A stretch of 64,000 bases of DNA, from IMG/VR virus record IMGVR_UViG_2721755711_000002. One strand, written 5' to 3'. The position numbers and the translations under genes are program-made. The stretch is from a virus (Duplodnaviria; Heunggongvirae; Uroviricota; Caudoviricetes). Positions 5,654 through 16,713 of the stretch are shown in pieces; the first letter of the stretch is position 1, and the number at the start of each line of letters is the position of its first letter. Below the pieces are notes generated by a model, which was not told the origin of the DNA, searched no databases, and saw nothing but the letters and a program-made list of their open reading frames with translations.

Positions 5654-6880
5654 ATGCATGGACTAGTTTTGACAACAGCCGGGGCAGCCGAAATTGAAGC
5701 TGCATATCATGCCGGTGAGGTGGTGACCATCAGTCAGGTGATGATTGGTGACGGGGGCGGGAAAACACTGCCCTCAACGCCGGATGAGATGGCGGCGATG
5801 GTCATGTTGTGTGGTGAGTTTGGTCGGGAGCCCTTTTCAGGCGGCGTGGTGGACGAAGGTTTTATCAGCGGGGATATTGTCATTGACTGTCAGTCATACC
5901 CGGGTAAGACCCTGCGCGAGCTGGGAATGGTGAGTCATCGTGGTACGCTGATTGCGTATGGTCGTTATCCGGATACGTATTTACCGGCACAGACGGATTC
6001 CGTTATCAAGGAGGTGATACTGACACTGGTTCTTGCGCTTACACATACACAGAGTGTAACGCTGAATGTTGATCCGCACAGGGCGATTATCACGCAGGAG
6101 GCCGGAGATAAACGATATCTGCGTATCAGTGAAAATCTTGCTGATGTGAAAGACAGGGATGAGGCTGTTGAAAACCTCGGATTAAAACCTACGGTGGACA
6201 AGGCAAAAAATGCCGTTCAGCGTGATGGCGACACCATGACAGGAAAGCTGACGCTGCCCCAGACCTCCGGATTTGGTGTTAACACTGACAATGCCCTGGG
6301 CGGTAACTCAATTGCTCTCGGAGATAACGATACCGGTATAAAGCAAAACGGCGACGGCATTCTGGATGTTTATGCGAATGGTCAGCATGTATTTCGTTTT
6401 CAGAATGGCGTGGCGATGGCGTTAAAAAATATTCAGGCCGGAAATGGCAGAATGTTTACGCTATCCAGTTCTGACAGTTCCACGAAGAACGTAGGGTTTA
6501 ATTTATGGGGCAATCCATCCAGACCTGTAGTTGCAGAACTTGGTGATGATTCCGGCTGGCATTTCTACAGTCAGAGAAATACAGACGGTAGCGTCACATT
6601 CGCTGTAAACGGACAGATGACCCCATCAAACTACGCAAATTTTGATGCCCGCTATCAGACAAAAACAGGTGGCGTGCAGAATTTTCAGTACACCAGTGAG
6701 GTGTTTTACAACCCGGGAGGGAACGAACTCAGCTGGACGTTCCGCGCACCGTCTGGTTGTACCCTGTCCGGTATTCTGGTTCAGGATACCGGCAGAAACT
6801 CTGCGGATAATATCGGTGGTGTGTATTACAAACAGGCCCAGATTTATATAAATGGCGCATGGCGCTCAGTATCAGGTTAA
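5654..6880 (+). CDS. Tail fibre protein, P2 gpH-like N-terminus with P1/Mu-type C-terminal domain
   Basis: N-terminus VLTTAGAAEIEAA...MIGDGGG like P2 H; C-terminal TDNALGGNSIALGDNDTGIKQNGDGILDVYANGQ domain; last ~66 aa unique. Confidence 0.8.
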   Translation: MHGLVLTTAGAAEIEAAYHAGEVVTISQVMIGDGGGKTLPSTPDEMAAMVMLCGEFGREPFSGGVVDEGFISGDIVIDCQSYPGKTLRELGMVSHRGTLIAYGRYPDTYLPAQTDSVIKEVILTLVLALTHTQSVTLNVDPHRAIITQEAGDKRYLRISENLADVKDRDEAVENLGLKPTVDKAKNAVQRDGDTMTGKLTLPQTSGFGVNTDNALGGNSIALGDNDTGIKQNGDGILDVYANGQHVFRFQNGVAMALKNIQAGNGRMFTLSSSDSSTKNVGFNLWGNPSRPVVAELGDDSGWHFYSQRNTDGSVTFAVNGQMTPSNYANFDARYQTKTGGVQNFQYTSEVFYNPGGNELSWTFRAPSGCTLSGILVQDTGRNSADNIGGVYYKQAQIYINGAWRSVSG

Positions 6881-6893
6881 TTAAGGAAAAATA

Positions 6894-7421
6894 ATGGAAC
6901 TCGTAAACGTTACGCGTTACTACCCTGAAGACATGCCTTATGGTGAAGGCATTCAGTATTTCCGTAGTGAAGACGGGCAGGATTTTTATGAATCACTGGA
7001 TAAATTCACGAAGAAATACAAGCTGTGCACGCATCCTGAAACCGGCGTTATTTATTCAATGGCGGAAGACGTATCCCGGCTTTATCCGGCAGGTTTTACC
7101 ATTGTGGAAGTGGATGAACTGCCGGAAGGTTTTGGCATTGAAGCCAGCTGGTATTACAAAGACGGAGAAGTGCTGCCGGTGCCTGTTGATTACTCGCGAC
7201 TGGCAGAAAAAAAACGCCAGAGCCTGCTGAATGAAGCAAAGGACATCACCTCCGACTGGAAAACCGAGCTGGAGCTGGGCACCATCAGCGATGATGACAA
7301 AGCCCGTCTTACGCAATGGATGGCATATATCAAAGCGGTAAAGGCGCTGGATTTAAGTCAGGTCAGTGATGAATCATCTTATAATGCCATTGAGTGGCCA
7401 GTACCTCCACAGAACATCTGA
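6894..7421 (+). CDS. Tail fibre assembly protein (Tfa / P2 gpG-like)
   Basis: 175 aa directly downstream of fibre gene; C-terminal ...SYNAIEWPVPP shared with the second tfa at 14669..15217. Confidence 0.75.
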   Translation: MELVNVTRYYPEDMPYGEGIQYFRSEDGQDFYESLDKFTKKYKLCTHPETGVIYSMAEDVSRLYPAGFTIVEVDELPEGFGIEASWYYKDGEVLPVPVDYSRLAEKKRQSLLNEAKDITSDWKTELELGTISDDDKARLTQWMAYIKAVKALDLSQVSDESSYNAIEWPVPPQNI

Positions 7422-7440
7422 AAAAGAAGTTAATCAACAG

Positions 7441-7465
7441 ACCGCCTTTAAGGGCGGTTTTTTTA
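7441..7465 (+). terminator. Intrinsic terminator between tfa and sheath gene
   Basis: accgcc/ggcggt stem followed by 7 T; sheath RBS immediately downstream. Confidence 0.55.
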
Positions 7466-14645: not shown

Positions 14646-14668
14646 AGTTTTTCTCGCGATAAATTAAA

Positions 14669-15217
14669 TCAGGAAGAGGCTTCCGGAGAGACGGGCCATT
14701 CAATGGCGTTATATGAGGCTTTATCAGTGATGGTGCTGAAATCCATCGCCTGCAGCGATTTCGCGTAAATGCGGTACGCTTTCAGCTTTTCCCTGTCTTC
14801 GTCGCTGATTAATCCCAGCAGCAGGTCTTTTTCCCATTCGCTGGTCATGATACTGACCTGTTTTAACAGGGCATCACGCTCGTCTTCCGCTTTAAGTTTG
14901 TAGTCGAAAACAAATTCATCATTGCGGTAAAACCAGTAGCCTGATGCTTCAATGCGACGATTAGCGGTAATATCCGGCAACTCAATCACGCTTTTATTTT
15001 CCGGGCAGATTGAGGTGATGTCTTTTCCGACCCAGACCACTTCGCCAGTTTTAACATAAATAACTTTCAGGGTGTCTGGTAGAAATTTTTCCTGGGCTTC
15101 GTGCCATTCCTGTCCATCATCTGAGAACAGCCACAATAAAAATTTATGCTGTCGCGCCAGCTGGTATTGCTCAATTGTTTTAGGGTTTTGTACCGTAATA
15201 TTTTTTAAGTGCATCAT
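14669..15217 (-). CDS. Tail fibre assembly protein (Tfa)
   Basis: 182 aa downstream of fibre gene; C-terminal ASYNAIEWPVSP shared with tfa at 6894..7421. Confidence 0.75.
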   Translation of the reverse strand: MMHLKNITVQNPKTIEQYQLARQHKFLLWLFSDDGQEWHEAQEKFLPDTLKVIYVKTGEVVWVGKDITSICPENKSVIELPDITANRRIEASGYWFYRNDEFVFDYKLKAEDERDALLKQVSIMTSEWEKDLLLGLISDEDREKLKAYRIYAKSLQAMDFSTITDKASYNAIEWPVSPEASS

Positions 15218-15219
15218 GA

Positions 15220-16713
15220 TTACAAACTCGCTACATTTCTCCAGACGCCATTAATCAGAACCTGCACCGGGCGTGCATTGGCCCAGTTCACACTTTCACC
15301 GCCATCAACACCACTCAGTAAATGACCTGATGGCGCATTTCCCCCGCGTCCAATACCAATGGCGCTTCCCAGACGTACATCCTGCACGCCGCCTGTTTTG
15401 GTCTGATAGCGGGCATCAAAGTTTCCGTAGTTTGATGGAGTTATCTGCCCATTTACAGCGAATGTGACGCTATCGTCTGTATTTCTCTGACTGTAGAAAT
15501 GCCAGCCGGAATCATCACCAAGTTCTGCAACTACAGGTCTGGATGGATTACCCCATAAATTAAACCCTACGTTCTTCGTGGAGCTGTTGGAGCTGGATAG
15601 CGTGAATTTTTTACTATCCCCGGCCTGAACGTTTTTAAAAGCAATAGCAACTCCATTCTGAAAGCGAAATACGCGCTGATTATTAGCATAAACATCCAGA
15701 ATGCCATCGCCGTTTTGTTTTATACCGGTGTCGTTATCTCCGAGAGTAATGGAATTACCGCCCAGTGCGTTATCCGTACCAAGCGCCAGCCCACCATCAA
15801 TTTTGGCCCCGTGGCTGACAGATATAGCACCTGTTCTCAGATTTATAGCAAATGGCCTTAATGGGCCAATATCGCCATTCTCGCCCTGACCTTCACTGGT
15901 AGGGATAAGGTGCAGGCACTCTTCCGAACGACGAAAAATCAGGCCAAAAGCGTCGTTGAAAATCCTCAGCGCATTAACACCACGGATTTTCAGCTCCCCG
16001 GTCATCAAATCACCAGATTTTTTTACATATCGCAGATCAAAATCTGAATAGATATTGCCGGGGTTTATCACGCTGAAATAGCTTTTCTCGTTATCAAGAA
16101 GGCAAATCAAAGGAATACCTTTAATGATATCATTCGCTACCAGCTCGGACTTGTTCCCCTTATAAAGTGGGAACGTACCAAGAACCTTTCCGCCTAGTGT
16201 TAGTTGAAGTGTCGCCGCGTTGGTATTGTTCTGAACGGGGAAAACGATAATCGGGGTTCGTAGTGTCCAATCTGTACCTTCATTAACAAAAAACGTCGAG
16301 GGAAGCTCCAGCGTCAGTGTGTTTGCAGTGCCACCAGCAACACCCGCAATATAATGACCGCTCTGAAGCTGCGCTATCTGTACGAAATAGTTTTCCGAAC
16401 CACGCGTGGCAAAGTTAGCCACAACGTCATTAAGGGACCAACCTTTCGCGGTTGTTCCTTCCTGCCCACGAATGACTTTCAGCACATCGCCGCTTACTGA
16501 TACCAGGTGACAAATCTCAAATGCAGACTCTTTATTATCGGTAAGCGTAATTTTTGCATAGACGCGTTGCCCGTTCGATTTATTTTCAAAATCGGCAGAA
16601 AGCAATTTTGCAAATTTAGCTCCCGTGCCCGGCATCACCGGAATATCAGTCTGAATCGTCGTGATATCGCCAGCCAGTGCTGAAACAACGTTATTGCCAA
16701 ATCCAAGAATCAT
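15220..16713 (-). CDS. Tail fibre protein with conserved P1/Mu-type domain and unique C-terminal tip
   Basis: 497 aa; residues ~313-444 almost identical to fibre 5654..6880 (TDNALGGNSITLGDNDTGIKQNGDGILDVYAN...); last 53 aa differ. Confidence 0.75.
   Translation of the reverse strand: MILGFGNNVVSALAGDITTIQTDIPVMPGTGAKFAKLLSADFENKSNGQRVYAKITLTDNKESAFEICHLVSVSGDVLKVIRGQEGTTAKGWSLNDVVANFATRGSENYFVQIAQLQSGHYIAGVAGGTANTLTLELPSTFFVNEGTDWTLRTPIIVFPVQNNTNAATLQLTLGGKVLGTFPLYKGNKSELVANDIIKGIPLICLLDNEKSYFSVINPGNIYSDFDLRYVKKSGDLMTGELKIRGVNALRIFNDAFGLIFRRSEECLHLIPTSEGQGENGDIGPLRPFAINLRTGAISVSHGAKIDGGLALGTDNALGGNSITLGDNDTGIKQNGDGILDVYANNQRVFRFQNGVAIAFKNVQAGDSKKFTLSSSNSSTKNVGFNLWGNPSRPVVAELGDDSGWHFYSQRNTDDSVTFAVNGQITPSNYGNFDARYQTKTGGVQDVRLGSAIGIGRGGNAPSGHLLSGVDGGESVNWANARPVQVLINGVWRNVASL

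Follow-up and report, generated by a model that had tools for sequence, protein, structure and literature searches.

A conserved homology segment is reportedly common to the fibre genes of several phages, namely P2 (H), P1 (S), Mu (S), Wphi and lambda (stf) (Haggard-Ljungquist et al. 1992; Sandmeier et al. 1992). The P2 H, P1 S and Wphi H genes carry such a block immediately ahead of the variable tip, which a tfa gene follows, and the block recurs in tails that are otherwise unrelated. The locus described here, which lies in a 64-kb window (the whole stretch of phage DNA that was analyzed), has the same arrangement. Both copies of the block in the window match these genes, at 72–78% DNA identity; the first copy is 76–78% identical to P2 H (14181-14557) and Wphi H and ~72% identical to P1 S. 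The block is also homologous in phiP27 and Yersinia phages. Compared with the segment of P2, P1, Mu, Wphi and lambda there is no difference in principle, but the carriers are two co-resident, inverted prophages of E. coli type, one of which pairs a lambda-like head and a P2-like tail. The Mu S/U pair (Tfa; PDB 5YVQ) is a further relative, since both tfa genes of the window belong to PF02413 and the protein of the first, TfaA, matches 5yvq_B with E = 7e-15. The TfaMu scheme set out in PMC9608196 also applies here: tip and variable N domain move as one, whereas the conserved C domain stays with the downstream DNA.

The invertible segments Mu G, P1 C, e14 P and p15B Min resemble the locus in that tip-plus-tfa units stand opposed, with repeats inside the fibre coding sequence at their borders. 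However, these systems have one constant 5′ fibre part, whereas here each of the two prophages has a full fibre gene, with neither an invertase nor 26-bp crossover sites in the window, and the intervening DNA consists of structural tail genes.

The reading that appears highly probable as a whole is that of a conserved shaft block, two separately acquired prophages and long-term cassette swapping. The repeat would be the conserved shaft block of two P2-H/Mu-S-type fibre genes, in prophages that were acquired independently and now lie tail to tail. The fibres are modular, being built, in order, of a phage-specific N-terminal anchor, a GD(T/L)MTG joint, the 133-residue block and a variable, putatively receptor-binding tip. 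The tip would be made with its cognate Tfa, whose variable N domain would bind the tip and whose conserved C domain would trimerize; these roles follow North et al. 2019, as quoted in PMC9608196. The block stays similar in DNA across many phages and would therefore act as a homology arm over evolutionary time. RecA- or phage-recombinase-mediated crossovers, together with gene-conversion patches in the block, would move tip and Tfa N-domain cassettes between unrelated backbones, and the inverted pair of the present genome would be only a latent recombination substrate. The repeat is real but ordinary. Its principle was already recognized in the early 1990s, and the logic of the chaperone in 2019, so that no new mechanism is learned from it.

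The shaft block and its two carriers

Prophage A, the one with the lambda-like head and P2-like tail, occupies the plus strand up to 14008 and is 98–99.4% identical over this part to PapRG-04-4 and seven draft genomes. Its gene order is Baseplate_J, Tail_P2_I (the P2 gpI homologue), fibre and PF02413 tfa. The fibre gene (5654-6880, +) encodes a P2 gpH-type protein of 408 aa with an N-terminal tail-collar domain (PF12571, E = 1.8e-16), and the ORF is intact, the same 408-aa gene being called in the other assemblies L006-L012. The gene tfaA (6894-7421, +; PF02413, E = 5.7e-21) encodes a tail-fibre assembly chaperone with a variable N domain at ~6894-7193 and a conserved C domain at 7194-7421.

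Prophage B lies on the minus strand from 14010 and is phiP27/Rac-SA53-like; from 14013 onward it is 99.8% identical to F2_407_2_2. Here the order is Baseplate_J, a 244-aa ORF, fibre and PF02413 tfa. The fibre gene (15220-16713, −; 497 aa), which lies within this 99.8% identical stretch, is intact and has an identical annotation in strain F2_407_2_2. Its N-terminal 235 residues have no Pfam match, with residues 4–141 weakly matching a solved "putative tail fiber protein" (8jov), and this part is unrelated to the N-terminal part of fibre A. The chaperone gene tfaB is located at 14669-15217 (−; PF02413, E = 2.4e-22). The distal fibre and tfa of B are 88% identical to phiP27 38999-40185 and ~81% identical to Rac-SA53.

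The first-pass annotation had described ~400 bp of inverted, near-identical DNA common to the two fibre genes. Comparison of the window with itself by blastn yields only two matches in the 64 kb, one of them the inverted pair. The arms, at 6284-6682 (+) and 15379-15777 (−), are 399 nt long, ungapped and 88.2% identical (E = 5e-144). A repeat search places the arms at the same positions, 88% complementary and separated by 8696 nt. The ends proposed earlier, 6284-6679 and 15382-15777 for ~132 aa, prove right to within 3 nt, the block being 133 codons long. Each arm sits in the distal half of a fibre gene of a different prophage.

Identity between the arms is uneven. The 5′ third is ~83% identical, whereas 6461-6598 is ~96% identical with 6 substitutions only, and synonymous divergence is 0.88 upstream, 0.145 in 6461-6598 and 0.42 in the remaining sub-region. 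The longest exact run is 76 nt (6512-6587, +) and the second longest is 32 nt (6479-6510). A similarity confined to the protein level is ruled out by the 88% DNA identity, the 76-nt exact run and a dS as low as 0.145.

Cassette exchange in related genomes

Cassette exchange between tail backbones is well supported by comparisons of related genomes. The relative of A in PapRG-04-4 has a backbone 98.3–98.8% identical to that of A, in which A's own cassette has been replaced by a B-type cassette; positions 10237-11557 of its locus L001, at the H/G position, match window 14685-16005 with 96.1% identity. Cassette b as it travels (14685-16005, −) thus comprises the distal 236 codons of fibre B and tfaB, and its left junction falls on the GD(T/L)MTG motif. 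Conversely, cassette a as it travels (6134-7193, +), comprising the distal fibre and the Tfa N domain, is found with 98.3% identity over 1060 nt on an unrelated Mu-like baseplate backbone (L013-L015). Homology there breaks at 7193, the boundary between the Tfa N and C domains, where it passes from A-side to B-side sequence. The GC content of cassette a is 47.2%, as against 54% in the A backbone, and the cassette is 89% identical in strain A8.

The junctions recur at certain places, the block start in A10 and B and the block end in TUM9812, whose fibre has DNA in common only from 6683 onward. The E. coli contig L016 is a clean single crossover from A-type to B-type sequence inside the 76-nt run at 6512-6587. 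Judging from these junction positions, the recombination would proceed by homology. The host-range cassette exchange proposed earlier is accordingly upheld as far as the swap goes, by PapRG-04-4, the Mu-like backbone and the L016 crossover, while the part of the proposal that concerns specificity is an inferred one.

The locus offers a clean worked example of phage host-range evolution, in which a conserved stretch of the fibre gene serves as the splice point and units made of a tip and its matching chaperone domain move among unrelated tails. The map of junctions (the GD(T/L)MTG motif, the block start, the block end and the Tfa N/C boundary) is of a kind that serves in engineering fibre chimeras.

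The prophage junction and the history of the arms

Where prophages A and B meet, their truncated second-fibre genes are fused head-on in an odd way, at 14008-14017. The gene stfA′ (13380-14015, +; PF08400, E = 9.5e-57) encodes 211 aa instead of 474 and is full-length in L001 and L006-L009. Its counterpart stfB′ (13980-14645, −; PF08400, E = 3.4e-62) encodes 221 aa instead of 474 and is full-length in L002. The 8-nt centre of the fusion, CCTGTAAA, at 14009-14016 (no strand), is the A/B prophage boundary. A gix/hix-like site at this point (the string CCTGTAAAC) was rejected, as its half-site spacing is wrong and the string is simply A's CCTG followed by the reverse complement of B's TTTA. A snap-back or template-switch origin was likewise discarded, since no such model gives the sequence seen there and each arm is a different allele.

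The junction may be a mis-assembly, two contigs that end at a collapsed repeat having been joined head to head at 14008-14017, in which case the adjacency of the two fibre genes would be artefactual. This is a serious possibility, although we stop short of calling it probable. The final 4 nt by which allele A (CCTG) differs from allele B (TTTA) are exactly those kept at the junction; ~1.36 kb that are 97–100% identical between the two lineages are missing there; and an assembly graph forks at this point, with draft contigs L011 and L016 stopping within ~30 nt. Furthermore, the junction and both fusion ORFs had no match in 5,426 complete E. coli genomes, GTDB representatives, a metagenome scan and exact ORF look-ups, and such absence from every collection searched also favours a faulty join. 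On the other hand, the sequence carries no Ns or other sign of a join, and a real deletion or rearrangement could yield the same sequence. Repeats are known to stimulate the loss of long inverted repeats, as in Tn10 precise excision. An assembly error at the junction would leave the 399-nt repeat itself unaffected, but the odd A/B junction calls for checking before this region of the assembly is interpreted.

A low-frequency RecA-dependent inversion might occur in this strain, with the outcome of a mixed population whose two tails have traded tips and tfa genes. The first-pass annotation had regarded the repeat as a substrate for such an inversion. RecA recombination has a minimum of roughly 25–30 bp, and a minimal processing segment is reported for RecA/RecBCD recombination (Shen and Huang 1986; Watt et al. 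1985). Inversion is mechanistically possible because the exact runs of 76 and 32 nt exceed these lengths, and L016 shows a natural crossover at exactly that place. Inversions at inverted repeats by general recombination are also known in E. coli (PMC4272514). Nevertheless, an actual inversion in this strain is unlikely and nothing supports one: the one sequence shows a single orientation, the arms are 12% divergent and mismatch repair suppresses such events. No other genome with both prophages adjacent was found in the collections searched. The 8.7 kb between the arms is not a cassette, as it holds the sheath, tube, tape-measure and gpD genes of prophage A as well as the A/B junction, and therefore a crossover would break the gene order of both prophages in addition to swapping tips. 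The product would have the A baseplate genes split from the sheath and tube genes and placed behind the B fibre, so that neither prophage genome would stay intact.

The similarity of the arms could in principle be due to a recent ectopic gene conversion in this genome, with the core at 6461-6598 copied between co-resident prophages 8.7 kb apart. That core (+) is a B-family-like recombination patch in arm A, where 22 consecutive informative sites are of B type and the cassette relatives A8 and A10 differ; a run of this length was reached in none of 200,000 permutations (p < 5e-6). A core dS of 0.145 compared with 0.88 and 0.42 in the flanks, and B-like alleles where A8 and A10 have others, are what such a conversion would leave. 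However, the fibre and tfa region with the patch included (5648-7421) shows 99.6% identity with its counterpart in seven further copies of prophage A, which occupy three or more attachment sites (yciE/ompW, smpB and hya), and the cassette is 98.3% identical on the Mu-like backbone. Cassette B is 99.8% identical in F2_407_2_2, where its block is unchanged. Since the patch is present in the seven other copies of A and on the Mu-like backbone and the B block is unchanged, the patch is older than the present genome, and conversion in situ is very improbable. The comparisons indicate that the exchange is lineage history rather than an event between these two neighbours, each arm having been inherited with its own prophage.

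The junction can also be imagined as real and functional, a pair of 1.4-kb inverted repeats having been lost and the prophages welded together as a single locked locus, with RecA flipping at the 399-nt block and the stf near-palindrome reassorting the tips. If true, this would be a host-range or tailocin-specificity switch that operates with no dedicated invertase on two contractile-tail gene sets placed face to face, but the proposal is highly unlikely. A programmed segment of the type known from Mu G, P1 C, e14 P and p15B Min, which a serine invertase flips, is hardly credible and was dropped. The geometry is superficially similar (inverted repeats in fibre genes, each followed by its own tip and tfa), and P2-like and Mu-like prophages of E. 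coli commonly carry such systems (PMC4272514). However, the N-terminal fibre part that goes with each arm is complete and belongs to a separate prophage, and the 8.7 kb encloses tail genes (sheath, tube, tape-measure and gpD). In addition, tblastn with Hin gave a best E of 1.6 across the 64 kb, the 20 larger ORFs of the region that were scanned with Pfam have no resolvase domain, and the crossover core AAACC NN GGTTT has no match in the window.

Tips and chaperones

Beyond the block, tip A (6683-6880, +; the last 66 codons and stop) and tip B (15220-15378, −; the last 52 codons and stop) form the variable, putative receptor-binding ends of the fibres. They had been said to differ completely, which is overstated: the two align over their full length with 18 of 66 residues identical (27%; z = 7.9 versus shuffles) and have the frame GGN...APSG..LSG...ING.WR.V in common. 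By this alignment, they are diverged homologues rather than unrelated sequences, and they probably set receptor specificity.

The contrast drawn previously between the N-terminal halves of the two Tfa proteins also needs softening. TfaA and TfaB are 32% identical overall, with the greatest likeness in the last ~60 residues. Even the C-terminal parts show no more than moderate similarity, and blastn within the window detected none between the two tfa genes at the DNA level. Both genes are well above the PF02413 (Caudo_TAP) gathering cut-off of 22.1, with 75.5 and 79.9 bits.

In the predicted structure, tip A reaches a pLDDT of 77–89. With Foldseek, no PDB entry scored below E = 0.1, T4 gp34 being a weak match only. 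The model of the distal part, block plus tip, has a mean pLDDT of 68 and a pTM of 0.34, values that are uninformative for an intertwined trimer modelled as a monomer (AlphaFold2, 25-sequence alignment). Neither fibre has a sequence match to the Mu fibre chain. The block protein has matches in T4 gp34 and in the distal subunit of a long tail fibre (6f45).

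The shared block of the two tail-fibre genes

A repeat search and blastn of the window against itself both place an inverted repeat where the first-pass annotation had claimed one, with one arm (arm A, 6284-6682, + strand) in the tail-fibre gene at 5654-6880 (+) and the other (arm B, 15379-15777, - strand) in the fibre gene at 15220-16713 (-). By the repeat search the arms are 399 nt long, 88% complementary and 8696 nt apart; by blastn they are 88.2% identical with no gaps (E = 5e-144), and the only other self-match in the whole window is a near-palindrome at 13380-14645. Each arm comprises 133 codons, in frame in both genes. 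Identity is ~83% in the first third, rises to a stretch with 6 substitutions (6461-6598) and is intermediate downstream, the longest exact runs being 76 nt (6512-6587) and 32 nt (6479-6510). Synonymous divergence in the three parts, in order, is 0.88, 0.145 and 0.42. The proposed similarity at the DNA level thus holds over all 399 nt, and constraint on the protein as its source is rejected by the 88.2% DNA identity and by synonymous divergence as low as 0.145. The arms are common DNA with a recombination history.

Both arms align at 72-88% DNA identity to P2 H (14181-14557), Wphi H, P1 S and phiP27, and several Yersinia and Salmonella phages also align to both within that range; as protein, the arms match T4 gp34 and the long-tail-fibre distal subunit (6f45). 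That unrelated phages share a fibre segment was reportedly described in 1992, in papers by Haggard-Ljungquist et al. and Sandmeier et al., and the block here is that segment. Each block is followed on its 3' side by a short, variable tip and then by a chaperone gene (PF02413). The tips had been said to differ completely, which is overstated, as 18 of 66 positions are identical (z = 7.9) and the two are diverged homologues. The reported difference between the chaperones was likewise too strong: the proteins are 32% identical throughout, and no similarity between the genes is detectable in the DNA. TfaA, the chaperone of fibre A, resembles Mu Tfa, for which there is a solved structure (5yvq_B, E = 7e-15); the variable N domain of the Mu protein binds the distal fibre and its conserved C domain trimerises, according to the account of North et al. 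(2019) given in PMC9608196.

Two prophages and the exchange of fibre cassettes

Prophage A (1-14008, +) carries capsid E, baseplate J, P2 gpI, the PF12571 fibre and its Tfa, the sheath, tube and tape-measure genes, gpU, gpX and gpD, and then a second fibre gene whose N-terminal domain is PF08400. Close relatives, 98-99.4% identical, occur in E. coli PapRG-04-4 and in seven draft E. coli genomes, and occupy three or more integration sites (yciE/ompW, smpB, hya). The head module of A, in the window (1-14008) and in the seven drafts (L006-L012), is lambda-like (portal_2, S49 protease, HDPD, capsid E, FI) and is paired with a P2-like contractile tail, with a lambda-Stf-like second fibre and a DUF4376 gene after gpD. 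Prophage B (14010 to past the window end, -) has its own contractile-tail module, different from that of A, and a recE-xis-int end of the Rac type. Over its first 9.5 kb it matches, at 99.8% identity, a prophage of F2_407_2_2 adjoining uspF/ompN, and in the fibre cassette it shows 88% identity to phage phiP27. The two prophages lie tail to tail, and the fibres are accordingly those of different phages. Within the baseplate/tail block of prophage B lie two further genes, one LprI-like (18589-19335, -) and the other for an AntA/AntB antirepressor (19668-20237, +), an arrangement also found in F2_407_2_2. The recE-xis-int end (59000-64000) is 93.8% identical to a module of PapRG-04-4 located ~30-50 kb from its prophage-A relative, implying that early-region modules are also common to these lineages.

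The exchange of host-range cassettes, proposed from the window alone, is supported by swapped cassettes on other backbones, by a mosaic arm A and by a crossover in another genome, comparative evidence that is stronger than what was first available. The prophage-A copy of PapRG-04-4 follows the window up to 6251 (98.8% identity) and again from 7342 (98.3%); between the equivalents of these positions, its DNA is instead 96.1% identical to the cassette of fibre B (14685-16005), with the left junction at a GD(T/L)MTG motif. The cassette of fibre A (6134-7193) recurs at 98.3% identity in L013-L015, whose unrelated backbone has baseplate genes of the Mu Gp45-Gp48 type; from 7193, the boundary of the Tfa N and C domains, that backbone matches the B side of the window instead (14017-14821, 94-97%). 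In other fibres the DNA shared with A begins no earlier than the start of the block (A10) or than its end at 6683 (TUM9812). The A cassette has 47.2% GC against ~54% on either side, and is a compositional island in prophage A.

Set against its cassette relatives A8 and A10, arm A is itself a mosaic: at 22 sites in a row within 6461-6598 it has the B-family allele, a run that none of 200,000 permutations produced. The contig JAAKCE010000056.1 (L016) of E. coli GCA_011032285.1, encoding protein P0048, is A-type at 38 of 38 informative sites in 6284-6511 and B-type at 10 of 10 in 6588-6680, and past the block it tracks the B side (tip b, tfaB, stfB) at 97.7%. It is a natural single crossover of A-type and B-type cassettes, switched inside the 76-nt exact run. 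Positions 6262-8161 of this contig, on a Mu-like baseplate backbone, correspond to window 6134-6587 joined to 15473-14028.

The fibre and tfa region of A (5648-7421) recurs, together with its B-family patch, at 99.6% identity in the seven further copies of prophage A, which lie at different sites, and the B cassette is unchanged in F2_407_2_2. Given the same patch in these copies and on the Mu-like backbone, with an unchanged B cassette, each arm arrived with its own prophage; an exchange within this genome is rejected on the same identical patch, and the exchange belongs to the history of the lineages. Mosaicism of this kind is textbook knowledge for phages.

Inversion between the arms

RecA/RecBCD recombination needs roughly 25-30 bp of exact identity. 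As the arms exceed this and L016 shows crossovers at this spot, inversion between them is possible at low frequency. The suggested 8.7-kb inversion is therefore plausible as substrate chemistry, but not as a tidy swap. The DNA between the fibres holds the sheath-to-gpD genes of A, the A/B boundary and tfaB; inversion would put the tfa and sheath-to-gpD genes of A behind the fibre of B, and the tip of B with tfaB behind the baseplate genes of A, breaking both prophage genomes. Non-crossover conversion between the arms would be the benign outcome. The window, as one sequence, shows one orientation and gives no sign of a second isomer. Invertase-driven fibre switches are known in E. coli prophages (PMC4272514); they are rejected as a model here, since neither an invertase nor a gix/hix-type site was found within the 64-kb window.

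The head-on junction of the second fibre genes

The only odd thing in the region is the near-palindrome at 13380-14645 (centre 14009-14016), where two truncated PF08400 second-fibre genes meet head-on. In both prophages the normal second fibre has 474 aa and is followed by a DUF4376 gene; here the genes are cut at codon ~211, leaving 211 aa (stfA') and 221 aa (stfB'). The fusion, ...CGAATCG CCTGTAAA CGATTCG..., forms a perfect stem of 35 bp around a loop of 8 nt (-84.5 kcal/mol over 166 nt, z = -22.6). Of its central 8 nt, four are CCTG, the final bases specific to the A allele (as in the prophage-A draft L008), and four are the reverse complement of TTTA, the final bases specific to the B allele. 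Just past the break, the genes of the two lineages agree at 97-100% over ~1.36 kb, and both copies of this repeat are missing here, together with whatever lay between. The junction was not found elsewhere in 5,426 complete E. coli genomes, GTDB representatives, a metagenome scan or exact look-ups of both fusion ORFs. An assembly mis-join and a real deletion or rearrangement with loss of a long inverted-repeat pair stand at roughly even odds. For the mis-join, the break lies exactly where an assembly graph would fork, and the draft contigs L011 and L016 terminate within ~30 nt of it; in that case the spacing of 8.7 kb between the two fibres may not be real, and the repeat would be unaffected.

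Across three backbones that otherwise differ, A, B and Mu-like (L001, L002, L006-L009, L013-L015), the stf-distal and DUF4376 module is 97-100% identical, against only 58-98% for the initial ~600 nt of stf. From these alignments the module looks like a second fibre cassette, exchanged independently. The truncated stfB' has 55% GC in a backbone of 46.5%.
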